DNA of 63,676 bases, filler included, from Basidiobolus ranarum (lineage: Eukaryota): the NCBI GenBank assembly GCA_040143965.1. It is 22 parts of 22 records of this genome, joined end to end, with 100 filler letters (N's around TTAATTAATTAA, not from the genome) between each part and the next. Parts side by side here need not be neighbours in the genome. Positions count along the whole stretch, not along the records: positions 14,543 to 17,347 come from JASJQH010009841.1; 21 more parts are not named here. One strand, given 5' to 3'. Under the pieces are notes generated by a model. The model did no database searches. It saw only the letters and a list, made by a program, of their open reading frames with translations, and was not told the DNA's origin. Below, piece by piece: positions 5,722 to 60,764 of the stretch (the stretch's first letter is position 1; each line of letters begins with the position of its first letter). The position numbers were made by a program, and so were the translations under genes.

Positions 5722-7160
5722 NNNNNNNNNNNNNNNNNNNNNNNNNNNNNNNNNNNNNNNNNNNNTTAATTAATTAANNNNNNNNNNNNNNNNNNNNNNN
5801 NNNNNNNNNNNNNNNNNNNNNCTTATTGATTGGTGGTCTGTTCGTTGAGAATCCTTTCCTAATAACAATCAAATGGCAACGACTCGTTATGTGGAGAATT
5901 CGTCGTAGAGTCCCAACACTAGTAATACTAATGAACACCCGGTGTTTAGTTTCTGTACGTTTAATCCCTGTCGGACTTTGAGTCAGGTTATATATATCAC
6001 CATTATATAATCAGCTGTCTTCAATTACACTTAGTGGTTCACTCCAATAGATCGCTTGATAGAGAAACCGATGTTTCTTAATCAGCAAATTAAAGTCATC
6101 ATCCTTCTAAAATACAAATGGCTGAAAGAGGACAACATGGAAATACAATCGGTGGAGCCGTATGGTATTGCGGCAAGGGTCCTGATCATTGGGTGCCCGT
6201 TAGTGGAAAAAGTACATACAATTGTGTGTACGCTGATTGGTAGAGAGGAAGGAAATGAACTCCAATGTCTAAACTTCCATACAAGACAGGTTTTAGCCCG
6301 CTCGCTGTAAAAGGGCAGTTATTAATATCACAGTAATGTACATTCCATATTGATCAAATTGACTGATTGTTAGTTTGCGGATTTGCTAGCAGCCGATATT
6401 ATATTCTCTTGCAACATCCAGTCACTGTGAAATAACTCACAATCGAGAGTCACATGGTTGAGCATATTAAGGGTACCGGGATATACACAACGCGTGAATC
6501 CATAATTCCAGAAGCCTCTAGTACGCGTTTGGCAAACGCTTGATTCCCTCCGCATATGCAATGGAAAGAGCTAGTGATTTGGTTGGCTCCGTATAATCGT
6601 AATCGATATGGAGAGGCACACTCAATTGTTGATAAATTAAATCCAACAAACAATAACGCTGTCACAGTATAACTAGGATAATTGAATTTATAATGGCTCT
6701 ACTTTGCATGTAGTTGATGCATATGTGAAGTTAGACTCCCTTCCAAGTAAACAATAGATGTAGTTAAAATGAAAGCCTCTAGCCATGTGGCTGACCGCAG
6801 GGGCTTAACAAACCGCCTGCTTAACTTCAATTTCGTAAGGTTTTGGATTTCGGCTCCTATTTTAAACTGATAACTCAATCTTAGATTATGCTTCAATACC
6901 AATCTTAAGTACTGATGAGTCTTCTAAGAAATCAAGGAACCAACCGAGAAGTGAGACAGTTGAGTGACTCGTATTGGATAAACTGATCTTTTTCAACCAA
7001 CTAATGGAAGTTATCATCAAGTTAATATATTATTTTAAGTTACTTTACATGGGCATTTCCATTCTATATCATTCTATATCCATTCAATGAGCCATCTCCT
7101 GGCGACCCAAAAAACTATATAAGAGTGAGGTCTGCCATTTGTTCACTACATAAAATAACG

Positions 7161-8465
7161 ATGCGTTACAATAGTCCACTTACACAGGTGCTCCTTGTGG
7201 GCCTTGTCTGCTTCTGCTGTCCCGGTATGTTTAATGTTATTAATGGTATGGGTGCTGGTGGACAAATGGATGATAACACTGCTAAAAATGGAAATGTTGC
7301 TCTATACGCTTGCTTTGCTGTATTCGGTTACTTTGGTGGCGGATTTTATAATATCCTTGGAGGTCGCTTGTGCCTATTATTTGGTGGTCTTTCTTACGCT
7401 CTATATTCTGGTTCTCTTCTCAACTACAACAATACTGGCAATGCTGCTTTCGTTATTGGTGCTAGTGCAGTACTCGGTATTGGTGCTGGTATCCTATGGA
7501 CTACACAGGGTGTGGTGATGATGGCGTATCCAGCTGAGGATCAGAAGGGACGATGCGTAGGTCTTTTCTGGATCATTTTCAACCTTGGTGGTGTCATGGG
7601 AGCTTTCATTCCATTTGGCTTGAATTTTCACTCCGATTCTGGAGCTGTGAGCAACTCGACTTACCTAGCATTCTTAGTGATCATGGTTGTAGGTGCTGTT
7701 ATAGGTCTTGCCTTACTTCCACCTGAGAAAGTTGTCCGTGATGATGGCAGTCGTGTTCATGTTGAGAAATTTAGTAACATCTGGCACGAAATCATTGAAA
7801 TTTTAAAACTCTTCACAGACAAATATATGCTTTTACTCATTCCCATGTGTCTAGCATCGAACTGGTTTTATTCGTACCAGTTCGGAGATGTCAATGGAGT
7901 TTTGTTCAACCTTCGTACCAGATCATTCAATAACGCCTTCTATTGGGGCTCGCAAATGATAGGAGCCTATGCTTTGGGCTCATTTCTCGATAGTCCTCGC
8001 TTTGGAAGACGTGCGAGAGCACTTTATGGCCTCACTATAGTGGGGGTATTTTTCACTGCTACGTGGGCTGGTGGCCTCGCTCTTCAACTTCAGTACACGC
8101 GTGAAAATCATCCTAAAGACATCGACTTCATTGATAATCCTGGGCCCTTCTGGCCCAAATGGTTGTTGTATTTGTGTTATGGTCTTTGTGATGCTGCTCT
8201 TCAAACGTACGCCTATTGGATCATGGGGGCATTGTCAAACGATTCGACCCTATTAGCCAGATATGCAGGATTCTACAAGGGACTGCAATCTGCAGGTGGA
8301 GCTATTGCTTGGAGAATTGATGCGGTCAACACTCCGTTCCAAACACAGCTCATAATCTCCTGGGCATTATTTACTGTCTCTTTACCCTTTACTTTTATGA
8401 TTGCCAAGGATATCAAGGAAACCAACAACATCCAAGAATCCACTGAAAAGTCACAGGCCCCATAG
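7161..8465 (+). CDS. UNC-93-like MFS transporter
   Basis: Intronless, ATG at 7161; family-typical QVLLVGLVCFCCPGMFN, GAGILWT.QG, ASNWFYSYQF, GFYKGLQSAG; multiple hydrophobic helices. Confidence 0.9.
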   Translation: MRYNSPLTQVLLVGLVCFCCPGMFNVINGMGAGGQMDDNTAKNGNVALYACFAVFGYFGGGFYNILGGRLCLLFGGLSYALYSGSLLNYNNTGNAAFVIGASAVLGIGAGILWTTQGVVMMAYPAEDQKGRCVGLFWIIFNLGGVMGAFIPFGLNFHSDSGAVSNSTYLAFLVIMVVGAVIGLALLPPEKVVRDDGSRVHVEKFSNIWHEIIEILKLFTDKYMLLLIPMCLASNWFYSYQFGDVNGVLFNLRTRSFNNAFYWGSQMIGAYALGSFLDSPRFGRRARALYGLTIVGVFFTATWAGGLALQLQYTRENHPKDIDFIDNPGPFWPKWLLYLCYGLCDAALQTYAYWIMGALSNDSTLLARYAGFYKGLQSAGGAIAWRIDAVNTPFQTQLIISWALFTVSLPFTFMIAKDIKETNNIQESTEKSQAP

Positions 8466-8729: not shown

Positions 8730-10500
8730 CGAGAACCCAGCTGCTACTCCTATACCTGTTTGTATGTTTGTGAACACGGTCACCAGAAATGCCAGTAGAC
8801 AGGACACCATGTCAGTTCCTGAAGGTGAAGAATAGGTGGTTAGCCTTGTCATGGTATGAAAAGGAATCATAGCGAGGCTAAAGCAAGCAATCATTGCAAA
8901 ACCATTTGTCACTTACTCTGAATTGTCCATAGCTGCTGGTACATCTTGTAATCATAGATCAATGGCATGATACTGACAATGATTACAGCGGCAAGGGTGG
9001 CCTTAGGGACATAGTACATCACCGGTGGTAAGAAGTTCATACTAAGCATTACAATGATGGCTGTGAGAATTCCACTTGCCGGGGTTTTGGCCCCCGATTG
9101 GGATATCACGGCTGAGCGCGATAGTCCTCCTGTGACTGGATATGCACTGAAGAAACTATTGGAAAGGTTACAGATCCCAACGGCAAACAGTTCCTGGCTA
9201 CTGTCAACTTTGTAGTGGCTTAGACGGGCTATGTGATTACAGAGGATTGTGAAGGTTAGTCAAGTCAATCCATAAATGAAGGATGAATGCTATCAAGTGT
9301 GAGGCGAACAGTATGAATGGGCAGGGGCTTGAGCACTTACCATATGTTCGAGAACCAGATATATGTTCCATGATCGCTACAAGAACACCCACAATCGATG
9401 GTGTAAGTACCTCGGAAATAAAGCCACTATTCAGTCGAGGTATCGATGGTTTCGGAAACCCTTCGGGGATTTTACCTAGAACGGTGATCGCTCCATTCTC
9501 TTGCACTTTGCTCACAATGAAAGCAATCAAGATGTATACAATAACCACGATTGCACTCCGGCCAATTCCCACCATCTTGACTGCTGGGTGTATATAGCTG
9601 AACCGATTTGAAAGGCTCTTCAGTATTATCATCATGGCTATACCGCTGAACCCAACCAATGCATCTTGCCAGCGTGTTCTATTTAGCGCATTAATGATCA
9701 CTTTCAGTACATCGGCAAGTGGACCCTGGGCCTTTGCTCCAGATATTCCTAGAAGTGAGGGGATCTATGAATGGAGGTGGATACAAGATATGCCATGTTA
9801 GTCTGATGTTCTTCAAATCACATAGGTATTCACTTAAGCGTACAGTCACAAACGATTGAAAATCTTACCTGACTAAAGAAGATTGTAACCGCCGCTCCTG
9901 CCGTAAACCCTTTCGTCACTGGAATGGATATCAAATCAAGGATGATACCCAGCTTCAGCAAACCTAGGCAAATCAGGATGCAGCCCATGAAGAAAGTCAT
10001 GGTGACTACACATTCGATAGGGTCCAGTCCTCTTGATACGAGTGTGTCCAAGGTGATGCCCACATATAAGGACAATACTGCAGATGGTCCGATCGAGATA
10101 TCCTTGGCGGTCCCAAAGAGACAGTACAAAGCAGTACCAACGAAACAAGAATAGAGCCCGTATTGCAGAGGAATTGTGGCCAGCTGCGCGTATGCTAGTG
10201 CCTATATATCATACGTGGAGCAGATCATGTTAGTTTAGTTGTTTTATATTCGATGATAGTGTTGCTCCGATCGAGATTCAAATCTCTCAGGAGTTTCACT
10301 TTGCAATGAACGCTGTAAGTACGGACCTGGGGGACAATCAAGATGCCAATGGTGATACCTGCAATCAGATCACCTATCAACCATTTCTTGTTGTAATGGG
10401 GTGCCCATGAGAGGATTGGGAAGTGTCGCTTGACGATATTTCCAAAGTTAATCTCTCTAGCCTCAGTAATCTCTTGAATGAAATCTGGCACTTGAATCAT
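8730..10500 (-). CDS. SulP/SLC26 sulfate permease, 3'-truncated at contig end
   Basis: GDLIAGITIG..IVPQ|ALAYAQLA..P.QYGLY, GTAKDISIGP, TGGLSRSA..SQSG. Exons approx 10500-10327, 10201-9869, 9764-9341, 9228-8917 and 8818-8730, with GT-AG introns. Confidence 0.92.
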
Positions 10501-13500
10501 CTCAGCCCTTTGTATTTGGATAATCAGTGGTAGTCCAAGGAAAGATATAACGCAGAGTAGAGATAGCCGAAGCGATATTGAAAGAGCAGCTTGTGCGAGT
10601 ATTTATTCTTAAGTTAGCAATCAGAGTGTATGCATCGTTGATCTACTTTGCACTTCAGATTTGATATATAGAACCCAAATTATACTCTCGAATTTAGGAA
10701 CATGCTGTTTTACTCCTTATTATCGAACAAAAACTGGATTATTGACCTGTTAGGAATCTCCCCTTGATAGTTGTTTCGTTTATTTACAGCTCAGATGGTC
10801 TTGCCCTTAATCCATTTTGATATTTCGTAGATTTTCTATTTGAACACGAATAGTAGTTAATCAATATTGTTACGCTAATCCTTTCAAGCAAATGAGAGTT
10901 AACCTGGACGTTTTATTTAAACTCAATAAAAACTCATTAATAGTGCGAATATAATGCCATGTACCCCGCAGTTCGCTACTTTTAACCATGCATCAGCTTC
11001 CATTGTTCTTGAACTCTACTACTATTCCCTTAAACTGATTAACAAATGTTTCTTGTGAGCCGAAATATTCACTAGTGTTGGATTTTCAGCACCGTGAATA
11101 ACCGTTTCAATTAATTGTTAACTTTCTACTCACTATTTGAGAAAAACGTATCTCTCTTTCCAATTAATTATTATGGGGCCAAGAATTATAGGGGTTGAAT
11201 CTAATTCCATTCAGGAGCAATATCTGAAATATGAGTTGAGACTATATATATATATATCCCATGAAACAAATAATGAAACAAACTATGAAACAAAACTTGC
11301 TGTTACTACATAGACCAGGATTGGAGTGGCTTTAGAAACATCGGTTTTGCTACACTGATATATAATCAGGTATAAGCCATGTTAGAAAGTCTTTGATTGA
11401 AGTCATCTTATCTTTGTTGGAACGTTCTATTAGTACTAATCTACTAAAAGAAGCTTGCATTAACTCGGTCATTGCGTCAATTTTAACATATTCATATCTG
11501 CATGATTAAGGTATAGGAGTAGCAGCTGGGTTCTTANNNNNNNNNNNNNNNNNNNNNNNNNNNNNNNNNNNNNNNNNNNNTTAATTAATTAANNNNNNNN
11601 NNNNNNNNNNNNNNNNNNNNNNNNNNNNNNNNNNNNATATGATTCAGTATTGTTACAATATCTCAAAAGATTGATGTCTTGATTGTCACTTTGTTTAGAT
11701 TAGTATTTAAGCTAAATAAAGTCTACACCATCTGGTGCTTTTCATCCGCCCTTCTACTTTGCAACATTCATACCAATACTCCAGAACTTCACACTTTAAT
11801 TAAGAAACTACAAAAGTAGTTATGTCTTCTTTGTTTTGTTTGAAATAAAGATTTCACCTGTTGGTGACTGTCTCACCCCTCTCCACTTATTACAAAATTC
11901 ATGAAAGACTTCTACATTTCCCAAGCTGAAAGGCTTCATCCCCAAACTTTTATTTTATATGATGAGATTTGGGAAGCAGCTTTAAAAGGACTCAATTAAT
12001 TCTCCTACCAATTTTATTTCTATCTTGTCTTCTTTATTTATTTGGGTTGTCTAACTTGAGATAAATAAAGATTACTACTTCTGGTGCTATCATCCCCCTC
12101 CTAAGAAATTGCTATCCTAAATGGCACTTCACTTGCTATACTGGTTTGCCTCATTAGAGCTCATATCTCCACATGTTTTCTATGCTCTTCCATATGGGTG
12201 TTTCATATGGCATATCTGCGATAGAGACGCATCATCTATTGGAACTACCTATCACATGGTCAACTCGAAGTATACAAGAAATATACACATATTAGCGAAG
12301 TTTTATGTAAGTTTCGGATTTGGCCTAATTAATGTTGGTTAATACAGTTTAGCCCCTAAAGAAGTATTCAATATATTGCTAACATTTTTTTTTGTCTTCG
12401 CTGCAAATGTATGAATGTTTGGTTCAGGCCATGTAATATCCATTTGCACAATAAATCTATTTCTTGATATAATCTAGGAGTATATAGTATCTTGTGCTCA
12501 TAGGACTGAATCTCTTTGCTTGGCTAATTATAGATGTTTCAAACACTCAGTGTTAAACATTTTGCACTTGAAGCTAATTTAGGGGCATGTCGGAAAAATA
12601 AATGTTCCCGTCATGTTTCGGCATCTTCAGCTCCGCATGATATTTACCTACAATTGCCACGGAATGGCTCAACGTAGCCTTGTGGTATACAGATATAATA
12701 GCCGATGTGATATCACATCTACACTTAAATATCCCACCCCTATGTTCCCAGGCCCAAGTGATCTATTGGTATATAGGAAGGATATTATTGTGTTTGTTAT
12801 GGGCAAATGATTTTGGATCAGGAGCAGATCCTGTTTCTCAATTCAAGAAATCGTCGATCTAAGGCTCCACAAGCCAATCATGCTTGAGGTAATGATTTCG
12901 CACTCGGTTGGATTCATTGAGCTACCATTGTCATTAAAGCGGGCCGTAAATCACACACTAAAGATCCCTATTTTGTCCTTGGTCGGACAGAAAAAAGGTT
13001 TACACACAGCCAGGCCACTAGAAAGTGTATGCTTCATTGGTGCAAGTATGAGTTGAACAAATGGTGGGTATTCCGCAGTTAAGGCAATCAAAGTTCTCTA
13101 CCAATAAGGCTTGCGACTCAACTGAGTTATCACTGGAATCAAGGCAGATTGTTGAACAAGACTATTTCTCTTACTGACGAACGGCAATCCCGACGATGTG
13201 AGTCATCCCTGAAGACCAGTGCTATACAACATTTTCCCAAGTGTTTTGAATTGCTAGGGCGGCACATCCGTAGTCAAAGGCCTGGGGGGAAACTCATGAA
13301 TCAACACCCCTCAGATGAATGTTACACCATCTACAGTGACTCTCAGTGTACAATGAACAGCTGAGAGCGTGTCATAATGCAGATGAGTTCTATGATTACT
13401 AATTGAAAAAAAAGCATAAAAATGCCACTTCCCCCATAAATTCGAATCAGCCTTTCTTGCAATCTTTCACTTTCCTGATCATTTGTATCAGACCACCCCA

Positions 13501-13508
13501 CAAAAATA

Positions 13509-14442
13509 ATGAAGTATCCAATAGAAAAACCAGCATTCATTGAGAAATTGACTCGATCAGCCATCATGTCCTGTATTGCTGGCATGATGATCCTGTGGGT
13601 GTCATTTGGCGTGCGCCAAAGCTTTGGCCTGTACATGATCCCAATTACACAAGAATATGGCTGGAGTCGATCCACATTCTCAATTGCTGCTGCCTTACTA
13701 CAGCTATTCTGGGGGTGTTCGCAGCCATTTCTAGTATACCTGGCCGAGCGATATGTTGGCTTTGGAAAAACGATATTCTTCACCTCCATCCTTTACGGCA
13801 TCGGATGCATCGTGATGCAATTATGCTCACCGAATCAACCTGGACTCTTCATTTTCGCTATGGGCATCGTTGTTGGTGGAGCTGCTGGTGGAAACAGCTT
13901 TCCAAATGTTCTAGCATCCATCGGTCGACGCTTTGTTCGTGGGAGTGATCAACAATCGATGGCCTTTGGTATTGTCTCTGCCTTTGGCAGTTTTGGCCAA
14001 GGTTTCTTTTTGCCAGTATCGAATGTCATGATTCACAACATTGGATGGAAAAATACATTGCTCATTCTTGGTAAATATCAATGATCCTCTCAACCTCTAA
14101 TTTATGCCGTAACTAAGACTCCTTTGTTTCTATTTAGGAATTTTGGCCGTGGCTGTCAGTCCTTTTGCTTTCTTCCTACAGACTGTAGAGCCAGTTTCTG
14201 CAGAATCAACTTTGAAATCTGAGGAGAAAGATGAGGAGCAACCCAATCCTGATGAGTTCAAAGAAGCCGCCATTTCCAATGAGCCACAGACAATCAGTGC
14301 AGCGCTTAAAGAAGGATTTTCATCGTTGACATTTTGGCTGATCATTCTCGGATATAGCGTGTGCGGATTTCACGTAAGTTTTATCGCGACTCATTTGCCA
14401 GCATATCTGGTTGGCAATGGGCTCGATGGATCCGTCGCGGCT
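13509..14442 (+). CDS. MFS transporter (bacterial-like subfamily), 3'-truncated
   Basis: GVRQSFGLY...GWSRSTFS...FWG.SQPF and FWLIILGYSVCGFHVSFIATHLPAYL; one GT-AG intron approx 14070-14137. Confidence 0.88.
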
Positions 14443-14543
14443 NNNNNNNNNNNNNNNNNNNNNNNNNNNNNNNNNNNNNNNNNNNNTTAATTAATTAANN
14501 NNNNNNNNNNNNNNNNNNNNNNNNNNNNNNNNNNNNNNNNNNT

Positions 14544-16049
14544 CCCATCATTGTGAAAAGTTTAAAATCAGATGCAAAGTTGTCCTCGGTGGCCTTTCAA
14601 GTGCATTCTGGTTTATTTACTGGTTTAGATTCTCGAATAGATGCTGCAGTACTAGCAGCGGCAGCAGCAAAGCGAATCAAGCGAAATCAAGAATACCTTT
14701 GGGGTGGTATGGACTATGTGACGTATGCGGCAGTTTTAGATATTTTACTGGTATGTCGCACAATGGACTTACGGATAGAAGGTGATACTCCTAATTTGTG
14801 CAAGTCGATAGATATAGTTCCATTGACTGAATGCGATGGGGCTAGTTTGAAAGCAAATAAAAACAAACCGCGCCCAGCAAAGAAGAATTCGTGGTATGGG
14901 TACATGGCTAAAGTTAGTATGGATTGGCTAGACCGTTTTACAGGAGGTACGGGTACTTGGGCTCATCCGGTAGTAGATGTTGCTGTAATGCCTGTATTAC
15001 TGAGTGTAGGTTTGGTACGAGGATTTAACTTCGGTATCCGAGCTGGAGAAGCGTGGATCGTTGGTACTGCTGTAGATTACTACCGTTTGCTGGCTCGACA
15101 ACCACCAACAGAGGTGAGAAAACTACTGAGAAGAAGTCTAGAGTTATTGACACATGATGGGTCATATTTTGACGAATACGACAGAGTTGGTCTTGACAGG
15201 ATAATAGACCTTGTGTCCAGTTGTGAAGTCAACTGTCATACGGAATGTCTAATTCAAAGCGACGCCAAAGATGTGAGCATGTGGCAACAGGTGGATACTT
15301 GGGATGGTGAATTGTGTCGATTACTTGACTCTGGTACAGGGAGTTTCGGTTATTGGGCATTAAAGGATATCCAGTCAAATATTGGAACCGACTGCAGTTA
15401 CGAAGAGTATGCGATAAGTGTATGCTGTGCATACATACACGATATTATTGACTACAGAGCTGACTCTATGGACGGTGATAAGGTAAATTTAGTGATACAA
15501 TCGACCAATAGAAGTGATGCCGCGGGACTAGCCGAATGCTGTGGGTATATCAAGGCGTATATTGATGATAAGGTGGTGGCTGATAAAGACGGAGTACTGA
15601 TAGGTAAAGTCTGTGTATTAGGGTTCCTGGCATGGAATATGACATGTTTGCGATACGGGGCTCTTGAACGTATCTTTCAGTGTGCGTTGGGAGATAGCAG
15701 GACATATGATAATGTTACCTTGTTACAAGCGGTGAAAATGGAAGCCCAAAACATTTGTGCCGTACAAGATGGGGACGGTGCACAAGAGGGGATTAAAGAT
15801 GCAGCCACTGATTGGCAGGAGATGATATCAAGTAGAACGCAGCGAGCAGCCCATGCATTAGTATGTGAGCGTCTATATATGTGGCCTGATGCCGAGAAGA
15901 AGGGTATGCACAAGTATTGTATGAGCTATTTCGTAACTCTTGGTTTGACAATGCTACGAAATAATTTACTGGAGCTGTGCTGTTCTAAGGAATGCTTTGA
16001 TTTTCATGAAATGGATAAGGAAGTAGCTCGAGTGACAGGTGCATACTAG
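14544..16049 (+). CDS. Uncharacterised protein with class I terpene-synthase-like motifs, 5'-open
   Basis: About 500 codons, intronless, open to the contig edge. RLLDSG (aa 256-261), HDIIDYRAD..DGDKVNLV (aa 296-314), WNMTCLRY (aa 361-368); numbering from the 14553 ORF. Confidence 0.6.
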   Translation, partial: PIIVKSLKSDAKLSSVAFQVHSGLFTGLDSRIDAAVLAAAAAKRIKRNQEYLWGGMDYVTYAAVLDILLVCRTMDLRIEGDTPNLCKSIDIVPLTECDGASLKANKNKPRPAKKNSWYGYMAKVSMDWLDRFTGGTGTWAHPVVDVAVMPVLLSVGLVRGFNFGIRAGEAWIVGTAVDYYRLLARQPPTEVRKLLRRSLELLTHDGSYFDEYDRVGLDRIIDLVSSCEVNCHTECLIQSDAKDVSMWQQVDTWDGELCRLLDSGTGSFGYWALKDIQSNIGTDCSYEEYAISVCCAYIHDIIDYRADSMDGDKVNLVIQSTNRSDAAGLAECCGYIKAYIDDKVVADKDGVLIGKVCVLGFLAWNMTCLRYGALERIFQCALGDSRTYDNVTLLQAVKMEAQNICAVQDGDGAQEGIKDAATDWQEMISSRTQRAAHALVCERLYMWPDAEKKGMHKYCMSYFVTLGLTMLRNNLLELCCSKECFDFHEMDKEVARVTGAY

Positions 16050-17090
16050 CAGTGGAGGCTTTCATTGATGATATCTTAGCCTACCTAAGTTTCTAAAAGT
16101 TAACAAGAATGATATGGACATCAAGAAAATGCTTTCATTTATGATTTTTTACTATATATATAACATCATTCTAATGAGGTGACTGCTAGCTACTTCACCT
16201 CTGTCTTATCTCGATGCTTTATACAGGTCATTATTTATGATCTGTATCACATTACTCCTCGTTACTGTCAGTTTGCATCATCCTCTCTTGATGTTTCTAT
16301 TGTCTTTTTCAGTTTCATTCATGGAAATTGCTGTAACTCATCTTGCTATAAATAATAAGAGTGTGTAGACTATACAACATTGTATTTTCTATTGGTAAAA
16401 CGGTTAACTCGCATGATATTTAGCAACTGAAAAATCTATAGTGAAGAATGGTATGTATTGGTAAGTAGTCGATATTTCAAATCACTTGAATCGACAAATG
16501 GTTAGTACAATCATGGCAGAGTTGGGTTAAAATAGAGTCTTGGGATCGGTTGGGTTAGGGTAAGAAGTTGGAACCGGTATGTTGGTAGCGTAGACAAGGT
16601 TTGTGAGGCTTATACGTTTGCAGAGTTGTGCATTAGGAAAGATGAATTGATTCAGGTATACCAAGCAGCACGGTGAGTGAGAATATAACATTCCTTAACA
16701 CCGATACTCTATTGACATGTACATGTTATTTTCAAGTCGTTATTTGTAACAAAAGCTTGCTAGTTAGTTATATAGGACGTATAGTTAATTCGTATATGAT
16801 TTATGTCAAGTAACATGCATGTTACACGGTCCACTAGAGTACATAACTAGAGAAGCAGGCATAACTCTCAACACTATCCCCTACTCCCAAAAAAATCGTG
16901 TAAATGTTGTTTAACAGTCATATTCTATTGACATTAGGCAAAATATGAATTTACCCCCTTAGTTCATCCTTCCAATCTACAACATTTCAAACTGATCAAA
17001 ATATCACACACAACTATAAATATCCCTCCGGAGATTGTAAGTTTTAATATATCGTACGTAATTCATTACTTCTTTACATTATTTATCAAA

Positions 17091-17347
17091 ATGAAATTCT
17101 CTTCTGCCAATATTCTCTCTGCTGTGTCCACCTGAGCTATAGTTCATGCTGCTGTGCTTGAACGAAGTTATAACATCAAGGATTACTCTGGAGGAGACAA
17201 AGGAAAAGGTGTCTCTTACGGCAGTCGTAATGTAGGGGGGGGAAATGATGGAGGTGAAGTAAGTGATAACTATGGTGGTAATGGTGGCGGTGGCTCAGGG
17301 GATGATTATGGCGGCAGTGGCGGCGGAAAATACAGTAGTGGTGGTGG
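17091..17347 (+). pseudogene. Glycine-rich secreted protein with in-frame stop in the signal peptide, 3'-truncated
   Basis: TATAAA near 17015; MKFSSANILSAVST*AIVHAAVLER followed by YGG/GGG repeats; TGA at 17133-17135. Confidence 0.6.
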
Positions 17348-19000: not shown

Positions 19001-20351
19001 AAATATCTACATAGTGATATATAGTCTACTACTTGGATACCTTGTATTTCACTATGATTAAACTCATCATGCTTGAATGGAATTGACCCAGTATATTTTT
19101 ACCAACTTTAGAGTTCTCAGATATATTGATTTTTCAAACTTGTGCTAGAAGCCACAAAATCTGTACACATGTTCTTGAGACCTTTCTGAGCACATTCTAC
19201 ACATTAGTTCATTTACATCATGAAAAACTATGAATGGAACTCTTGACTCTAAGTATATAAATAAGTTCCATGTTTTAAATGAAAGGATCTTGTATATTGC
19301 TATCTTACAATATTTTGCCTATCTAGAAGAAGTACCACCATCTTTGATCACTAAAAATTGTTGCAGCCCTATAAATTTTATTTCAGAGTAACTTGAGCAG
19401 ATCATGACCAAATTGTGGAAAACCATCAGAAATCCTGCTTAATATAAGCTTATAGGATGTTGACTTCTTTTATGTAGATTACCTCATGGTTTTCTGATAT
19501 GATTTTGTGATATTGCTTGTTTCATAATCCCAATTGGAACCTATTTAAAAAATTCTCATTTAGGTTCCCACCTGCTTCTGGTGATAGCATATAGTGCTTC
19601 AACATGCAGATATTTGGTACCCTATGAATAAGCAGTCATAGTGCTTTTAGTATTGACATATTTGTTCCAGCTGTAATGGGAGTCAAAACTCAAAATAAAT
19701 TGCTCTTTGTACACTTCAACAAATGTAGAACTATGATTAAGCAGAAATAGCTACAAAATATCAAATTCAATCACAATTATTCTGATATATCTAAGTCCTC
19801 TTGAGTTGGTAAAAATATACTGAGTAAGTTCAAAGCAAGAATAATGGGCTTTATCTTAGTGAAATATAAGATACCTGAGTATTAAACTTAGTTAAAGTCA
19901 GTGCCTCAAAAAAGAAAGTGGATTTTGACAACACTGTTGCTTGCAACCAATTGCTAAAGAACCCTAGGTGCTCTTAAGATATAACACCAACAAATATTTT
20001 GAACCTCTTTTGGCAGCATCTTTCAATAGACTTGTACAATCAGACCAGGTCAGATCATGTAGCTCATTACAGCCTGCTAGTAGAACATCTGGCACAATTT
20101 GTCAATTACCATGGCTGGGTCCTATAACACTCAATCAGACATTATAAGGAACAATATGGCACTATCCCACCACAATCAAACATGCTGATTTTTTTGGAGA
20201 TATTGCACCAGCCCATACCAAGTTACCCAATTTAGTATTGCCAAATTAAGANNNNNNNNNNNNNNNNNNNNNNNNNNNNNNNNNNNNNNNNNNNNTTAAT
20301 TAATTAANNNNNNNNNNNNNNNNNNNNNNNNNNNNNNNNNNNNNNNNNNNN

Positions 20352-21651
20352 GGATTTGTATATATTCAAGTGGAATTTTGAAAAGATTTCTGCCTGATAA
20401 GTATTGGCAACATTGGGAGTTGTTTGTCAATATTGTTAATATATTCTTATGGCATCAACTCATATTGGCAGATCTCAGGCAGATACAGCAATTGTGCAAA
20501 GATTTTGTAATTGGATATGTAAAACTTTATTACAGGTTTAAAGAAGATAGACTGAATCTATACCTGTATTCAATACATTCCCTGCTGCATCTTTCACAAT
20601 GCATAGAGATTATAGGCCCTTGTTATACATTCTGGGAGTTCCAAATGGAGTGCACCTGCAGTGAAATGATGCTCCATGTGAAATTGTCAGTATTACTGTA
20701 TGCTAATCTGATTAACAATATATCAGCAAAATCTGTGATGGATGCAATGCAATGGGTTAAGGAGACTCCAGAGTATATTAACCTGCCAACAAAGGGCTTG
20801 TTTCAATGTGCTCTTGGGTTTTTGCATTGTTTGAGCACAATAACAGCAACAAAGCCCAATCCATGGACACAGAGTAAATACCTTTATAATTGGACTAATT
20901 TGCTTGCGTGATGATCTGATGGTATTTTTAGGAAAGCTGCAAGACAGACTTCTTGGTGAGAAAGATCAAGATATGCTGTTTTAGCCATGGGGTAATCTAT
21001 GCAAGCAATGACACATCTTCTTGTGGCAAGACATTTGTTGACTCTAAGTCAGGATTTATTGGCTGAATTCTTTATGGAAATTTGCCAAAATCCAGGAGCT
21101 TATTCTCAATGTGATCAGTAACAAGAGTGAGCTATTTGCCAAGTGTTAGTGCTACTCAAAATTTCAGATGTTGAGCAATTTTTCCATCTTTAGTTTGCTG
21201 GTAAAGCAAGGAATATTGATGTTGTTGAGTAATGTCTAATCAGTCAAGTATGTGCATATGTAGAGACAAAACACAACAAGATTCTTGTATTTTTTGATTC
21301 TCATTATGGCTGCAATACAAAGCCTAAAATATCTAAATAAAGGGATGCATATTAATTCAAATTCCGACAGCAGTAAACCCAAGAATTTTCCATTCCAAAA
21401 TAGTACTTTTTCAAAAATTGCAAGATATTGAATAATGCAAATATTGACAGATTTTGAATGATGCATGCCAAATTTGAGGATCAATGTTTTAACATGTTTG
21501 AATTCCATCAAAATACCATCAAGAAACCACCATCACATCATCAAAATTTGTGGCAGAATGCAAGCCACCAATATTGTGATGGTTCTCTGATGGTATTGCT
21601 ATTTTGGAGGGTGGATCCAATCTGGAACAAATCAATTTTTTTTTGTTACGG
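20352..21651 (+). mobile_element. CACTA/CMC transposase C-terminal part, 3' region and right terminus
   Basis: LP.KY..HW..FV, HSLLHL..CI..IGP...FWEF.ME (Tnp2 C-terminal region); ends TTTTGTTACGG. Confidence 0.85.
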
Positions 21652-22803
21652 GAAAATTACAATTTATGAAAGTTCAAGGTGCAAGTCATGCTGAGAGAGA
21701 GGGAGCTTTAGGATGTAGTCTCTGGAGATGAAAAGAAACCTTCTGACCCTTCTTTATTGAAAGCTTAAAAAAAAGAGACATGGAGGCCTTTAATGTCATT
21801 TGTCAAAGCTTGAAGGATTCACAACTGTTGAATATTCAATATGCCAAGACTTCCCATCAAGCTTCAATTATATTAGATGAGTGTTATGAAGCAAAGAGTC
21901 CTGCTAATACACTCTTTCTCAGACAAAAATTCTCCAATATAAAGATGGAAAAGTCTGACAGCATGGTTACTCATATTACAAATGTGAGATCCTTGGCAAA
22001 ACAACTTGAAAATGTTGGTGCAACTATACAGGAAGAAGATGCCATTTTGATTCTTCTAAATAGTCTACAAAAACAGTATTCAAACTTGGTCAAAGCTGTG
22101 GAAGCAAGAACCAACAAGTTATCTTTGGAGTTTGTAGTGGCAAGACAGATGGATCAATACCTGAGATGTAAGAATTTATAAAAAGAATCTGAGGAAGTTT
22201 TTTTTTGGAGCTTGGAAATGTAGCTTTGGCAAGTACAAAGGTTACAAAAGAAGAAAGCCAGGTTTAAGTTATGGTTGTAACAAGCCAGGACACCAGTTAA
22301 AAGATTGCAAATCAAGAAATTACAACAAAAATGAGAAGTCAGAATAAGCAAATCAGGTTTCAACCAAAGAGGAAGTTTTATTCATTTCTGCCCTATCAGT
22401 GACCTTTGAACAAGACAGTAAGCTGTGGCATATTGATTCTGGAGCCTCTCAACATTTCTTTAATCAAAACAAAACTGGTTTAAGACACTCAAAAGTGACA
22501 TAAACAAGAAGGTTTTTATGGAAGATGACAAGCCACTAGAAGCTCTGGGATTTGGAGAAATAGAAGTGGATCTTAGGGGCATCTCTGGGAACATTTATTT
22601 GACACTAAAAATGTGCTATATTTGCCTGAGATAGCAAAAAATTTGTTATCAGTGAGTTAAGCTATATTTGAGGGATATAGCTTTAATTTTGAAAAAAAAG
22701 GCTGTACAATCAGGGATCATAAAGGAAATTACATAGCTTCTGAAGCTAAGCAAAATAACTTGTATAAACTTCATTTTATTAGGCCAATATATGAACAAGT
22801 TAA
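21652..22803 (+). mobile_element. Decayed Ty1/copia gag-protease
   Basis: ENYNL*KFKVQVMLRERE; UBN2-type gag (ILLNSL...Y); decayed zinc knuckle GCNKPGH..KDC; protease WHIDSGASQH. Confidence 0.88.
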
Positions 22804-23429: not shown

Positions 23430-23777
23430 TGTTGAGGTATCTTAGGAGTTGCTGGAAGTGGCTGGGAGAACTAGAGGAATTAGTGGTTTTCACTTGATGA
23501 TTTATTGAGTGGAAAGTTGACATTTATAGTTTTGTCAAAGGGTAATCAAGTAAACACTTAGAATGTGTTAAAGGTGGTCTCAGCAAAATGTGTGCAAAGT
23601 TTGGGGCCTCCAGAACAAGTTTGAAAAGTTCATATATCTGAGAACTTCTAAGTCGGTGTAAATATTCTAAGTAAATTCCTCTTGAGAATAGTGAGTAATA
23701 TCTTGGTGAAATATATTATAACTAAATACTAAGCTATATATGACTATATAGATGTTCAGGCTATGATAATTTCAACA
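23430..23777 (-). mobile_element. Copia solo LTR family A
   Basis: TGTTG...CAACA, flanked by AATAT/GATAT (4/5 target-site duplication). Confidence 0.82.
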
Positions 23778-24723: not shown

Positions 24724-26056
24724 TTAAACAAATGAAAATTTTGTCACATGTCGCGAGACATCATTACCAATATGCTTTTCATTCAGTTTTGATACAATCA
24801 CTTGCTTTAAACACGAGTGATTTGTAAGTCTAAGCAACCCATGTCTAGTGAAGTTTAGGTTTCCAAGGTTCAGTGTGTGAATTTTAGGGCATCGTGCTGT
24901 GATCTCGTATACTAGACGATCTCCCATACACACCTCGGTTTCCTTGAAGTGCCCAAGATATAGCTGCTCTAGATTTGGACAGCCTGCCAGTACGTATTGT
25001 AGCTCTGGAGCAGAAAAGGTCATGCTCGTGATATCGAGTGAGTGGAGTTCATGTACATGCTTGCGGAGTGAAGGAAGCAGGCTGGTAATTGTTCCTTCAT
25101 TCGATTGAAGAGTGAGTACCCTCAGTTGCATCGAGGACCTGGTTAGTAACCTATCCCAGGAAAGATTGGAGATATCTGAGCCCTGAAGTTGAACTTGCTG
25201 TAACTGGTTACCTCGATCAAAGACTGGGGCAATGCACTCATCATTGACTGGTGTAAATCCACGGAGAATTAGTTTTTGCAACTTTGAGCATTCTTTCAAT
25301 TTCATAATAGCACCACAGATTAGATCAAGCTCATCTTGCTCACATCTGCTCATATGAAGTTGATCAACGTCAAATGTGAGAGAAGTGAGACTTGCTTTCT
25401 GATTATTCACCAGGGCATCCATCACCAGATGGATAGAGGTATATCTTTCACACTTGACATACAGCTCTTTCAAGCTGTTCTGGTTCAGATTAGTGATTGC
25501 CCGGGCAAGTTGGGTACCATATAGTTTACATGTAGAGATGTGTAATTTCTTCAAGTTTGGGCAGGAGTTCAGAATAGTTGATGCCTCAGAGTCATCAAAA
25601 GCATCTACCCTGATATGGAGCATCTTCAGAGCTGGAAGATCAAGGCCACTGGGTATCAACTCTCCCAGTAGAACTTTGTGTGATCTCAATTCCACGATAC
25701 AATCAGAGCAGTCTTGCGATATAAGTGACCACAGAGACTGGGCGATCAGAACTCCATGTGCTGGCTCATCAGAGCCAAATTGTTTGTCGTGGAAAACTGA
25801 TTCAATCCAACCAAGGTCAACAGTGCGTAGATATGTGTGGTACTGGTGCGGCAGTGATTTTGTGGTTATGCTCTTTTGCATGGCTTTTAGTAACTTGATA
25901 TTTACTCTTTTCATTTGAGTGAGGTTATAGTTCCTGGTTTTTATGAGGCTCCAGGGGTTCTTATAAAGTAGGCGACAGCATTGAGTACTCCATTGACCAT
26001 TGATAAGAGAACAATTGAACAAAGCATCGATATCATCTCTTATCCAGTGGAGGATA
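24724..26056 (-). CDS. F-box/leucine-rich-repeat (RNI-like) protein, 5'-partial
   Basis: CSLIN.QW...CCRLLY F-box tail; repeated CPNLKKLHI/CPNLEQLYL/CPKIHTLNL leucine-rich repeats. Confidence 0.8.
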
Positions 26057-26324
26057 NNNNNNNNNNNNNNNNNNNNNNNNNNNNNNNNNNNNNNNNNNNN
26101 TTAATTAATTAANNNNNNNNNNNNNNNNNNNNNNNNNNNNNNNNNNNNNNNNNNNNATTGTGTCTGATTGTGATGGCATAGTGCCATATTGTTCCTTATA
26201 GTGTCTGATTGAGTGTTATAGGACCCAGCCATGGTAATTGACAGATTGGGCCTGATGGTGTACTAGCAGGCTGGATCAAGTGGCACAATCTGACCTGGTC
26301 TGATGGAACAAGTCTAATACTCTG

Positions 26325-43217: not shown

Positions 43218-43447
43218 TGTTGAAATTAGCATTGCCTAAACATCTATATAGTCATATATAACTTAGTACTTAGTTATCTTATAACTCACTAAGATATTAT
43301 CAATTATTCTCAATCGGAATTTACTTAGAAGTTTGAAGATATATAGATTTTTCAAAGAAGCCCTAAACTTTGCACACATGTTCCTGGGACCTTCCATAAC
43401 ACATTCAACACATTAGTTGATTTACATCTTGACAAAACTATAAATGT
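43218..43447 (+). mobile_element. Copia LTR family A, truncated by contig end
   Basis: TGTTGAAATTAGCATTGCC. Further partial copies near 19100-19250, 36560-36860, 42130-42335, 50465-50745 and 63415-63640. Confidence 0.8.
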
Positions 43448-46341: not shown

Positions 46342-46442
46342 NNNNNNNNNNNNNNNNNNNNNNNNNNNNNNNNNNNNNNNNNNNNTTAATTAATTAANNN
46401 NNNNNNNNNNNNNNNNNNNNNNNNNNNNNNNNNNNNNNNNNT

Positions 46443-46937
46443 GGTGTATACTCCTCCTCCTACCTTGCCGAGGGCACTTTTGTATTTAAATATAACACAT
46501 CCGATGGCAAAGTTCATCGTATCATTACCGAGTCCAACAACTTCGATAAGCTACGTGAAATCATGTATTCGAAAGAGCACTGTCTGGATAATGAAGATCT
46601 AGATATTTGTTATGTTGATGATGAGGGAGACATTGTAGTAATCTCTAATGATACCGATTTAGAACATGCTGTCAATATGGCTAGACATCATGGTTTGGAT
46701 CGATTGAAACTCTCCATGAGTGCGGATTTTGTAGAAGACGGTCATGAAGAAATTCTATCAGAGGCTCGTGAATCTACTCCTACCCCTGCTCCTAGAGAAT
46801 TCATTCCCGCTCCTGCCATTCCTGAGCCTCCCAAACCCAAGAGCTCCTTTGGACTATCTAATGAATTGTTATATGGTCTTGCTGGAGGTTTTGCCGTTGC
46901 TACAGTGATGGGATTTGTTATGTCTAGAATGAAATAA
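46443..46937 (+). CDS. CBS/PB1-domain protein (Mug70-like), C-terminal part
   Basis: PB1 domain: FVFKY..SDGKVHR ... ICYVDDEGDIVVISNDTDLEHAV..AR; C-terminal TM anchor. Confidence 0.8.
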   Translation, partial: GVYSSSYLAEGTFVFKYNTSDGKVHRIITESNNFDKLREIMYSKEHCLDNEDLDICYVDDEGDIVVISNDTDLEHAVNMARHHGLDRLKLSMSADFVEDGHEEILSEARESTPTPAPREFIPAPAIPEPPKPKSSFGLSNELLYGLAGGFAVATVMGFVMSRMK

Positions 46938-50995: not shown

Positions 50996-51663
50996 TGTCA
51001 AAGTATTTTGAGAGCCTGTTGGAAGTGGTTTGGAGAATTAGAGAAGTTGGTGGTTTTCACTTATTAATTTATTGAGTGGAAAGTAGATAGTTTCATTTTG
51101 TCAAGATGTAAGCCAACCAACACATAGGATGAGCTAAGAAAGGTCTAACAAATATGTGTGCAAGGCTTGGGGCTTCTAGCACAAGTTTGAAAAAATCTAT
51201 ATATCTGAAAACATCTAAGTTGGTAAAAATATTGTCACTAAATTCCAATTGCAAATAATGGGTAATATCTTAGTGAAGTATAAGATAACTAAACAGTAAG
51301 CTTTATATGACTACATAGGTGTTTAGGCAATGCTAATTTCAAAAATCTCCCTCAACTAAATAATCCTATTAACCAATGCTAAGCAAAGTCTAAATTTCTC
51401 AAATTTAAGTCTAGCTAATGGGTGGGTTAATATGCCAGCAATCATACCTTCTGTAGAGCAATAAGTTAAGTCAGTAAACTTACTCTCTGTAGTCTCTCTA
51501 ATAAAATGGTATCTAATAACTGTATGTTTGCTTCTATTATGAAAAGTGGGATTGCTAGCTAATTTGATACAACTTTTATTAACTTGAAATATTTTAGTTG
51601 GTGAACTTTGAGAACAGCCCCTATTGGTTAGAGCTTTCCTAACCATATTGCTTTGATTGTTGC
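50996..51663 (-). mobile_element. Ty1/copia RNase H end, polypurine tract and 3' LTR (family A)
   Basis: NPTFHNRSKH..IRYHFIRE; TTGAGGGAGAT tract abuts the LTR at 51344-50996. Confidence 0.88.
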
Positions 51664-53510: not shown

Positions 53511-55017
53511 ATGTGCAAGGTGTTCTTTTTTGTACAATATCCTTCTCATGCTGCAATACCAACATTTAAAGAAGCCCCACTATTATTTCCCAAATTCTTG
53601 TGCTATGAAAGAAGGAGGCTTCATAGAAAAAGTAATCAAAAGCACAGTCACTGTACAAAGCCACCAGCTGCACATAGCCTGGTGTATAACAACAGTAATA
53701 AGTGCACTAAATCAACTTTAGTATTGCCCATTGAGTCCACTGACTGTAGTTTGTCTCAAAGTTTTGGTAACACTATCAAAAGTCAAGATACTGTGGAGTT
53801 ACCACATTTATAAGACCAAGATGATGTAGGTCAAAATGCAACTTTGGTCAAACCAGTAAGTCCAGACAAATTTGAGGACTTGCTGCTAGATGTGGACCTT
53901 GGTTATTCCAGTACCAATGGTAATATATCAGAAGTTGAAGAAGAAGATGATGGTTTTGTTATGGACTCTTTGTTATTGGCAAACATTAGTCCACTCATAA
54001 CACTTACTATAAAGGAAGCAGCTGTGATTACTGAGGAGTGGAGAGTTCAATCTAATCTTAGCAACCACAGGTTCATTGGCTTTCTTACACTTGCATCACA
54101 GTTGATTGGTACCTGTTGCTTGCCACAGACCTGACAAAAGTGGGAAGCATTTGTCAATAGTATGAGTTATAATCCTTCAGTAAATAAACTACCTTCATGT
54201 CCAAATGGTTGTTTGGCTTTCACCAGTGATCTGAAAAACCTGAAGTCATGTGCTGTTTGCACACAATTGGCAACCACTGAATCAGGTAAATATCATTCAT
54301 ATTTGGCCTACATACCATTGATTCCCCATCTTAAAGTTGTGACAAAATCACCCAAATATAGATCATTGCTCCAATACTAAAGTACTCACCATAAAGCTGA
54401 TGGTATGACTGATGTACATGATGGACATCACTACCAGAATCTGAAGAAGTCAAGGTTTCTTTGAGAACATGTATGATCATGCATTTGCATTGGCTCTGGA
54501 TGGTTTCTCACTAAACAAATATATCATTGGAAAGGCTTGCTGGCCAATAATTTTAATCAACTTAAATTTTCCTCCTTCTGAATGGTATAAGAGTCATAGT
54601 ATTTTGATATTATCCATCATATCTGGACCTAAATCACCAGTGCTTATAGACAGCTTCTTGGAGCCCTTGATTGTGGATTTTGAATGGTTATCTAATGGGG
54701 TTCAGATGGGTGAATATTTTATTAAAGCTAATATCATTGTATGTATTAGTGACACTCCTGCCACCAGTAAACTGGGAGGTTTTTGTGATTACAATGCACT
54801 ATCTTGCTGTAGATTTTGTCAAATCAATGGAGTTTACTCTAACAAGCATACACATTACTAATATCTAAATACAACACTAAACTTCATGATTTTACCATCA
54901 AGAGCCCAGCCAGATTTCAACATGATCACTGATATCAATTCACCAAATAGGCAGTGTAACATCAAACTTGGTATTAGCTGTAAGCCTAAGATTATTTTGC
55001 TAAAGGGGATCAGCTAG
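53511..55017 (+). mobile_element. CACTA/CMC (Tnp2, Transposase_21-like) transposase pseudogene
   Basis: CPNGCLAF...CAVC; DGF...CWPIILINLNFPP; ISGPKSP..IDSFLEPL; DTPA..KL.GF....CRFC. Confidence 0.88.
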
Positions 55018-60008: not shown

Positions 60009-60764
60009 TTAAGCAAAACCTAGATTACTTACATCCATATAGGCTCCTGGGAATTTACTACTAACTGGAAGTCTAAGATCAAACGATTCAAACGCATCGA
60101 ATGCCTCTAGAACTCTCCTACAGTTTTCTTCTACACGATAGTGCCTTTGGCGACTATCTACGCGTGCAAACCCTTTATTACATACGATGCAATGATATGG
60201 CTTATCCCCGGTGTGCAAACGTACATGCCGTTGAAGGTCATGTTTTCGCGTGAATGCACGTTCGCAATGATTACATTGAAACGGCCTGGTGGTAGGGGCT
60301 GACATCGTTCTTTTTATTAAGTGTCGGTTGGAGGTTTTGGAGTCTTTCCTGATCGAGGATTTCCTTTTAGGAGACACTTGTTTGTCCTCTCCAATGGGCT
60401 GAACCATCTGGTAAGGCATAAAGCATTCAGACTCGAGTGTAGAAAAGTGTGGCGAAAGGTCAATTCCATCAGATTGAAGGCAGAAGGCAGAGTTCATAGC
60501 AAAATTTAAGGATTCAAACTGAGAGGGAATGCTACCCTGCATCAACTCTGGCGCTTCCGGGGAGGGAAGGTCGAACTCGTCACTGAGACTAATGATAGAT
60601 GGCGAAGAGGTACGCTCTTCAAAAGTAGAAAACACCTGCTGTTGGTGTGATTGTTGTAAACTGTCTGTAGAGACTCTCTCGTAAAGATATGCGGTATTCA
60701 TATCTGCAACCCAAGTATTGTCGGGCAAAAAGAAGGGCAAGCTCTCAGCTGGTAGATCTGTCAA
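60009..60764 (-). CDS. C2H2 zinc-finger transcription factor, 5'-partial
   Basis: FQCNHCERAFTRKHDLQRHVRLHTGDKPYHCIVCNKGFARVDSRQRH. Confidence 0.92.
   Translation of the reverse strand: MTDLPAESLPFFLPDNTWVADMNTAYLYERVSTDSLQQSHQQQVFSTFEERTSSPSIISLSDEFDLPSPEAPELMQGSIPSQFESLNFAMNSAFCLQSDGIDLSPHFSTLESECFMPYQMVQPIGEDKQVSPKRKSSIRKDSKTSNRHLIKRTMSAPTTRPFQCNHCERAFTRKHDLQRHVRLHTGDKPYHCIVCNKGFARVDSRQRHYRVEENCRRVLEAFDAFESFDLRLPVSSKFPGAYMDVSNLGFA

Follow-up and report, generated by a model that had tools for sequence, protein, structure and literature searches.

A candidate non-canonical class I terpene cyclase in Basidiobolus ranarum and a truncated second copy of its gene

An open reading frame of 501 codons lies at 14544..16049 on the plus strand of a 63,676-nucleotide stretch of Basidiobolus ranarum DNA (assembly GCA_040143965.1), referred to here as the window. 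The frame appears to cover the 3′ 60% of an uninterrupted 804-codon gene that the genome holds in two duplicated versions, and corresponds to residues 310–804 of the protein encoded by the sister copy. The evidence leans towards the intact protein being a non-canonical class I cyclase that binds Mg2+, holds and ionises a prenyl diphosphate, and cyclises the resulting cation. This enzyme claim concerns the intact 804-residue copy and not the copy in the window. The contig that carries the frame (C9841; 2,805 bases) directly follows an artificial linker, and the frame is already open from the second base of the contig, so that the gene is truncated on its 5′ side and its true start is missing. 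Thus, where a sequence-only reading of the same DNA had described an orphan open reading frame, the 501 open codons stand but represent a fragment rather than a complete gene.

Residues are numbered such that residue 1 is encoded at window position 14544; the sequence-only reading counted from a GTG at 14553. All of the motifs that it quoted are present in the frame, in the order and at the spacing described. RLLDSG (residues 259–264; 15318..15335) contains the putative diphosphate-sensor residue Arg259 and a putative helix kink. At His299, 40 residues after Arg259, begins HDIIDYRADSMDGDKVNLV (15438..15494), which occupies the position of the NSE motif. Here, HDIIDYRAD (residues 299–307) provides an Asp300/Asp303/Asp307 triad, and DGDKVNLV (residues 310–317) provides a G-D-x-x-N-L-V tract. 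WNMTCLRY (residues 364–371; 15633..15656), an instance of WxxxxxRY found in both copies, follows with its Trp 65 residues and Arg370 71 residues past His299. The frame ends with a C-terminal extension of 130 residues (15657..16049), as had been stated, which is helical in both of the low-confidence models described below.

Also in agreement with the sequence-only reading, DDxxD/E is absent from the frame, which therefore departs from canonical class I enzymes at this motif; the 804-residue protein has a single DDxxD/E, at residue 92, far from the core. No CxxC is present in either copy, though Cys accounts for 3–4% of residues. Hydropathy analysis (best 19-residue window 1.9; five windows above 1.6) revealed two moderately hydrophobic regions and no membrane-helix run. 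The ordered three-motif pattern at loose class I spacing (R..[DE].?G, 30–45 residues, [NH]D..[DS]...[DE], 50–75 residues, W.....RY) was matched by 0 of 200,000 shuffled sequences; given that this pattern was devised with the sequence already in view, the result speaks to the order of the motifs and not to their function. Individually, WxxxxxRY, the acidic motif and RxxDxG were observed in 2.5, 4.0 and 40% of 20,000 shuffles, respectively.

A mechanism can be proposed in which the C-terminal half most likely folds as the class I terpene-synthase helical bundle. Asp300, Asp303 and Asp307 (Asp609, Asp612 and Asp616 in the 804-residue protein) would, together with His299, bind Mg2+ at the NSE position, and Arg259 (Arg568) and Arg370-Tyr371 (Arg679-Tyr680) would grip the prenyl diphosphate. 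One residue among Asn162, Asp178 and Asp130 (Asn471, Asp487 and Asp439) would supply a further metal site, on the helix opposite. Once the diphosphate has left, a hydrophobic pocket would house the carbocation during its cyclisation or quenching.

A search of the genome located the sequence in three places: the window contig, C1560 and C3584. The C1560 copy, 88% identical to the window frame, has an uninterrupted 804-codon frame with ∼310 further N-terminal residues, and its product is identical, letter for letter, to the B. ranarum hypothetical protein KAK9761116.1. The 90% cluster of that protein holds only itself and a 446-residue product called on the window contig, which begins at the first ATG of the frame (Met56; 14709..14711, plus strand); this start is probably artefactual, owing to the contig end. 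C1560 and the window contig are colinear over 2.8 kb at 82% identity, a downstream gene for a glycine-rich protein included. Over 495 codons, the two copies show synonymous divergence (dS) of 0.25 and a nonsynonymous to synonymous ratio (dN/dS) of 0.24; the ratio is 0.18 for the core, 0.20 for the tail (residues 386–501) and 0.46 for the first 110 codons. This shows a real protein gene that was selected through most of its history. Arg259, the aspartate triad and the RY pair are unchanged at this dS. The Ser of RLLDSG is Phe in the sister copy (RLLDFG). The main contribution of the window copy is to serve as a second sequence giving evidence of selection, rather than as a new gene.

The N-terminal 310–335 residues of the sister protein gave no Pfam match and no feature match in the ESM Atlas, and the matches to their predicted structure had template-modelling scores below 0.4. 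This part was also dissimilar to the N-terminal parts of five of the look-alike proteins described below (64–392 of 500 shuffles attained the scores). A GxxxW likeness spotted by eye in the N-terminal part was dropped.

Three canonical terpene synthase genes in the genome (C7857, C3776 and C120; loci L012–L014) are found by a search with PF19086, which does not find the studied gene; they carry NDIYSFEKEYENGDIHNLV or NDLFSFEKEYAHGDINNLV. The best gap-free match of the query to this block is HDIIDYRADSMDGDKVNLV, in register with NDIYSFEKEYENGDIHNLV and identical to one canonical cyclase at 7 of 19 positions. Among 3,000 shuffles, 24 attained the score of this 19-residue block for the window copy and 5 for the sister copy. 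Canonical class I enzymes (PF19086 and PF06330) share with the query the order of sensor Arg, NSE block with G-D-x-x-N-L-V, and WxxxxxRY. The query differs from them in its NSE residues (Asn to His, Ser to Asp and Glu to Asp), in its shorter spacings, in its lack of DDxxD, in being twice as long, and in having no match to PF19086, PF03936 or PF06330. The usual distance from DDxxD to NSE is ∼140 residues; in the two whole canonical cyclases of this genome DDxxD was observed 172 and 213 residues ahead of NSE.

In the ESM Atlas, the features of the 446-residue piece matched two unnamed Ascomycota clusters of 488- and 518-residue proteins (0.95 and 0.94), an ABA3 cluster (0.94) and TRI5/Terpene_syn_C_2 (0.91–0.92), and the best 10 named matches all fell within one family or clan. 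Two structural models were obtained, model 1 from two sequences (predicted local distance difference test (pLDDT) 31.9; predicted template-modelling score (pTM) 0.31) and model 2 from seven (pLDDT 36.4; pTM 0.43). Model 2 has helices at residues 252–260, 268–279, 286–309, 313–319, 326–340 and 351–367 with a break at 261–267, a series that we take to fit the G1-kink-G2, H, short helix, I and J of class I cyclases. When model 2 was compared with 48,161 chains, all four matches with at least 99 aligned residues among the 50 listed were isoprenoid-synthase folds: 7bzc (Z 6.1, 206 aligned, root mean square deviation (rmsd) 6.7), 4okm (Z 5.8, 199 aligned, rmsd 5.5), 3apz (Z 5.8, 99 aligned, rmsd 5.9) and 7y47 (Z 5.7, 118 aligned, rmsd 4.2). 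A second structural comparison gave terpene or squalene synthases in 7 of the 50 matches listed, including ranks 2–4 (Z 3.7–5.4). The ABA3, CLM1 and AsR6 structures were absent from the matches listed, which excludes nothing. Across both comparisons, the long alignments to terpene synthases had Z 5.2–6.1 and rmsd 4–7. Taken as a whole, the structural evidence for a cyclase fold is suggestive only.

Six look-alike genes were found elsewhere in the genome. Scanning the DNA with a loose version of the acidic motif yielded 25 matches, compared with 17 for a control, and one new look-alike, C8029 (3626–5656, minus strand; 677 residues), with RAWDFG 36 residues ahead of its motif and GEIMNSV and WSISSARH after it. 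Other motif patterns gave 5 matches, two of them the known copies, and 24 against 20 for a control, and yielded nothing new. Onward searching identified C6902 (L073:2174–4567, plus strand; 798 residues), C1715 (659–2983, minus strand; 775 residues), C2198 (8–1726, plus strand; 573 residues), C443 (L078:985–2793, minus strand; 603 residues) and C572 (L112:736–2742, plus strand; 669 residues). A gene that, on our own reading, is cytochrome P450-like sits beside C443 in tail-to-tail orientation. All six are uninterrupted orphan frames of 573–798 residues, three of them rich in CxxC, and the five that were scanned gave no terpene-synthase Pfam match. In several frames, C116 (L077:1486–2272, plus strand) carries a shattered copy of the C1715 gene, a second decayed duplicate within this group.

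The six proteins keep, in order, an Arg in R..[DE] 33–37 residues before the motif, HDxxDxxxD..N, and an Arg in R[YHQ] 64–76 residues after it. In a seven-sequence alignment with the query, at 13–19% identity, Arg259, His299, Asp300, Asp303, Asp307, Asn315 and Arg370 are invariant. Pairwise relationships were assessed against 1,000 shuffles with the nine-residue motif fixed in place, and the score was attained by 2 shuffles for C8029, 2 for C443, 11 for C6902 and 18 for C572. Core profiles that included C8029, which had itself been chosen via the motif of the query, ranked the two query copies 1st and 2nd of ∼2,000. Kinship of the query with the look-alikes is likely over the second half of the core, judged from these alignments, and the overall link appears modest. 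Conservation of the motifs among homologues, proposed earlier as a check, is therefore seen at the key positions of the six look-alikes, with the reservations that this link is modest and that no homologue was found outside the genome.

Published reports allow comparison with named systems, in the case of VigB by its published motifs. VigB, a non-canonical diterpene cyclase of vinigrol biosynthesis in Virgaria nigra, has 589 residues with D260YGT as its first motif, R339-G340, N369DIQDYERD and RY, and requires its terminal domains for activity (PMC12703729). Like the query, it lacks DDxxD, has large N- and C-terminal additions, and places a sensor Arg before and RY after an acidic motif (N369DIQDYERD compared with H299DIIDYRAD, 5/9 identical; Tyr436 at +67 from Asn369 and Tyr371 at +72 from His299). 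To the single-Asp motif DYGT of VigB the query offers DYYR at −121 or NFGI at −137, and DYG occurs in two look-alikes. Unlike VigB, the query has His for Asn, 804 residues rather than 589, and R259-L260 at −40 rather than Arg-Gly at −30, and its contigs carry neither a geranylgeranyl diphosphate (GGPP) synthase nor a P450 gene.

TriDTC (Tri4155 of Trichoderma), annotated as hypothetical, lacks DDxxD and depends on a DxxDxxxD triad (Asp445, Asp448 and Asp452); it is reported only from Trichoderma, Metarhizium and Ophiocordyceps (PMC12370890). The query shares the triad and the lack of DDxxD but has Arg370-Tyr371, whereas TriDTC is without RY. In the ABA3 cyclases (BcABA3, RuABA3 and SkABA3; PDB 8ZAC–8ZAG), Mg is held via one Glu, Tyr/Arg/His occupy the NSE site, and Cys384, Cys387, Cys407 and Cys410 form a C-terminal zinc site (PMC11695735). 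ABA3 resembles the query in Atlas features (0.94), the lack of an Asp-rich first motif, RY and extra C-terminal helices, but the query appears from its sequence to have an acidic triad in NSE register and no CxxC. Classes ID–IF are described as using D(N/D), ND and RxxKD motifs (PMC11234867). The query would work like these enzymes but departs from each of the groups in a defining feature, and it is therefore filed under none; on the best reading, it is a non-canonical cyclase whose second motif is like that of VigB and TriDTC. GGPP, the substrate of these two enzymes, is offered as a first guess at its substrate, solely because both have the triad in common with the query, as well as a large size or additional domains.

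The position of the first metal-binding site is less well defined. The look-alikes have one Asp 113–120 residues ahead of the His, in LDT, DYG or DHG, and in five of them a Tyr/Phe lies 46–50 residues past this Asp and 34–35 before the Arg. Asn162 (NFG; 15027..15035) is set by global alignment on the DYG/DHG of three look-alikes, 46 residues before Tyr208 and at −137 from the motif; if Tyr208 is the conserved Tyr/Phe, the query has a 16-residue insertion and its first position is Asn162. Asp178 (AVDYY, residues 176–180; 15069..15083) lies 121 residues before His299 and resembles the DYGT of VigB at −109. Asp130 (WLD; 14925..14933) is chosen by local alignment to the LDT of three look-alikes but needs ∼50 inserted residues. 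The first ligand would be one of these three residues and may be Asn162. Of the two candidates put forward by the sequence-only reading, at 173–177 and 206–210 in its numbering, AVDYY is retained as one of the three and FDEYD is unlikely. YFDEYD (15165..15182; FDEYD at residues 209–213) ranks 1st of 150 positions in gap-free block score against the LDT group, a kind of score that does not decide, and aligns with the conserved Tyr/Phe of the look-alikes and not with their first Asp.

The frame was correctly described as an orphan. Pfam gave 0 families at E ≤ 10 and NCBIfam likewise no match, no PDB chain sequence matched at E ≤ 10, and HMMER with the 501-residue frame, a query that starts after the N-terminal part, found only itself among 1.84 billion representatives. 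A PDB search with a profile of four look-alikes returned three matches at E 0.6, none of them cyclases. Word-index searches with the window frame, the 804-residue protein and a seven-sequence profile, each scoring the best 8,000 candidates of near length, returned only the window's own protein; given that the profile search missed its own other members, the method is insensitive. Pattern searches gave 3 and 140 matches in metagenome contigs, 12 in viral contigs and 0 in plasmids, with none confirmed. A single weak match with an internal stop (E 0.0095) was found in 401 bacterial genomes of one phylum, again with none confirmed, and a further set gave 0 of 3.

When bacterial and archaeal genomes were scanned with a VigB-type DNA pattern, 27 loci were recovered, 11 of them with the motif in frame; none had RY or RH 55–90 residues later, and none resembled the query. 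Seven of the 11 in-frame bacterial NDIxDYERD matches (L043, L045, L047, L050, L052, L060 and L065) are membrane proteins that we take to be UbiA-like prenyltransferases. UbiA prenyltransferases are multi-pass membrane proteins with NDxxDxxxD; the query is alike in this motif but has no Pfam match and only its two moderately hydrophobic regions. NDIxDYERD alone is therefore unsafe for genome mining. The suggestion of a horizontal origin for the gene is unsupported: no bacterial, viral or plasmid relative was found, and GC content and third-position GC content (0.44/0.38) were close to those of the two host exons compared (0.45/0.46 and 0.43/0.40). A bacterial origin has been published for some Basidiobolus secondary-metabolism genes (PMC7466969). 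In a literature search on Basidiobolus terpene cyclases or synthases and non-canonical cyclases, no title or abstract opening among the records listed dealt with these genes, though the homologue list in the VigB supplement could name Basidiobolus proteins; the term “Basidiobolus” is absent from the supplement of PMC11234867.

A number of observations weigh against a terpene cyclase assignment. The spacings differ from those of the genome's canonical cyclases, with the Arg at −40 rather than −46 and RY at +71 rather than +92/93 (+64–76 in the look-alikes), and the acidic motif is by itself not diagnostic. There is no DDxxD, and the best-anchored position for a first motif is an Asn; should Asn162 be the correct position, one metal ligand would be weaker, and this is the chief ground for doubting activity. 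Shuffled proteins score 0.95 in the Atlas once per 100. Both models are of low confidence, model 2 being best near residues 287–382; Foldseek gave no match at E ≤ 0.001 with either, the Z scores of 5–6 fall below the bar of 8–13 that the tool sets for helical proteins, and short helical hairpins outrank the cyclases and make up most of the 50 matches listed. In the comparison with look-alikes, the pairwise tests were not significant for two of the six (C1715, 136 of 1,000; C2198, 364 of 1,000), a core profile without C8029 ranked the query copies 10th and 13th of 2,002, and a full-length profile of four look-alikes did not raise the query above 2,000 shuffles. Profile-profile comparison gave a probability of 5% and E 0.008 over the HD-to-RY stretch. 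Finally, no prenyl-diphosphate synthase or P450 gene is present on the contig of either copy. The sequence-only proposal of a divergent class I cyclase in which HDxxDxxxD replaces NSE draws support from the canonical register, the Atlas, the look-alikes, the triad of VigB and TriDTC and, weakly, from the long structural alignments to isoprenoid folds, but falls short of proof.

Other explanations of the same data can be considered. The alignment and the 46-residue distance that set Asn162 on the first Asp of the look-alikes would suit a terpene-synthase fold that has lost catalysis and acts as a ligand-binding or regulatory pseudo-enzyme, and relatives of TriDTC from Metarhizium and Ophiocordyceps are described as inactive in two hosts (PMC12370890). 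However, Arg259, the triad and RY have been retained between the copies, Asp178 could serve as ligand instead and matches the look-alikes in raw distance, and class ID enzymes employ Asn in D(N/D) and ND motifs (PMC11234867). A pseudo-enzyme appears unlikely. We consider equally unlikely that the protein is an unrelated helical orphan with cyclase-like motifs arising by chance. Such a protein would account for the lack of any family, sequence or Foldseek match, for the 0 cyclases among the 50 matches listed for model 1, and for the success of a motif pattern composed after inspection of the sequence; set against this, four partly independent lines (Atlas, structure, motifs and register, and look-alikes) agree on one fold.

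The fold might also serve a different chemistry, that of a prenyltransferase, a prenyl-diphosphate phosphatase or a chain-joining enzyme. The structural matches listed include the prenyl-diphosphate synthase 3apz and the squalene synthase 3asx, the acidic motif recurs in the presumed UbiA-like proteins, and the 310-residue N-terminal part has no assigned function. The sensor Arg with its kink and WxxxxxRY are, by contrast, established features of cyclases, cyclases dominate the relevant structural matches, and no membrane-helix run is seen; this explanation seems, if anything, marginally more doubtful than the two preceding ones.

The status of the window copy itself was also considered. C3584, at 76% identity to C1560, carries the first 329 codons of a copy together with the region upstream of them, and this 5′ half is interrupted by stops at codons 260 and 314. 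The end of C3584 overlaps the start of the window contig (14543..14617, plus strand), the 75 bases showing 2 mismatches to the window and 9 to C1560. The genome search returned no more than two 5′ halves and two 3′ halves. Between them, C3584 and the window contig cover the sister locus, at 78% and 82% identity. In addition, the adjacent glycine-rich protein gene has a TGA at 17132–17134 where the sister locus on C1560 (L068:150–445) encodes Trp. The window copy is thus more likely than not a recently broken duplicate spread over two contigs. Against such decay, the second of the two C3584 stops falls in the overlap, at a codon that is sense in the window; the two contigs therefore do not represent exactly one haplotype and may be different alleles. 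That stop, the 501 codons without interruption at dN/dS 0.24, and the somewhat different dS to the sister copy (0.25 compared with 0.36) would be explained if the window copy were intact and C3584 another broken allele or a third copy; the count of halves, the tiling and the nonsense codon in the neighbouring gene count against this, and we regard it as possible but the less probable account.

If the 804-residue protein is an active cyclase, His can stand in for Asn, and an Asp triad with RY suffices; together with the six look-alikes, it would form a ready panel for heterologous expression. Non-canonical terpene cyclases emerge family by family, each yielding new skeletons. In a published survey, antiSMASH identified 4–10 cyclases in each of three Basidiobolus genomes (PMC7466969). 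Given the absence of terpene-synthase Pfam matches, genes of the present type would probably be missed by family-based mining. More tentatively, at least seven very divergent HDxxDxxxD terpene cyclases (570–800 residues, uninterrupted, with differing N-terminal halves) might form a clan in Basidiobolus that is old, has expanded, is so far undescribed and escapes such mining. The 804-residue protein would then be one of its active enzymes, with a novel N-terminal domain and an uncommon first metal site, and would make a terpene skeleton that is not yet known.

The sole true neighbour of the studied frame is the glycine-rich protein gene (17090..17347, plus strand), of which the contig retains the 5′ start only; its product is probably secreted, on our own reading of its hydrophobic N-terminus. 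Some 22 contigs of ∼2.8 kb apiece make up the window, each mapping separately (C9836, for example, supplies 1–2811), and they are joined by a fixed artificial linker of 44 N, TTAATTAATTAA and 44 N that recurs identically every ∼2.9 kb and precedes the studied contig at 14443..14542. Gene order across the linkers therefore carries no meaning, and frames such as 20300–20911 and 25403–25918 may be artefacts or cut. An upstream major facilitator superfamily (MFS) transporter gene (13509–14442), truncated by its contig end, lies beyond the linker and is therefore not a true neighbour; it was dropped as a cluster partner. Ordinary genes on other contigs include an MFS/UNC-93 transporter (7026–8465), a sulfate permease (9237–10602), a leucine-rich repeat protein (24724–26100), a PB1 domain protein (46398–46937) and a C2H2 zinc finger protein (60009–60779). 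A Pfam scan also identified fragments of a Copia-type gag (21747–22181; E 5e-30) and a tnp2 transposase (54445–54861; E 1e-16). A short repeat family is present at the far end of C3584 (L005:2002–2248) and at six window sites: 998–1042, 11674–11750, 23726–23776, 43219–43275, 51287–51345 and 54246–54305.

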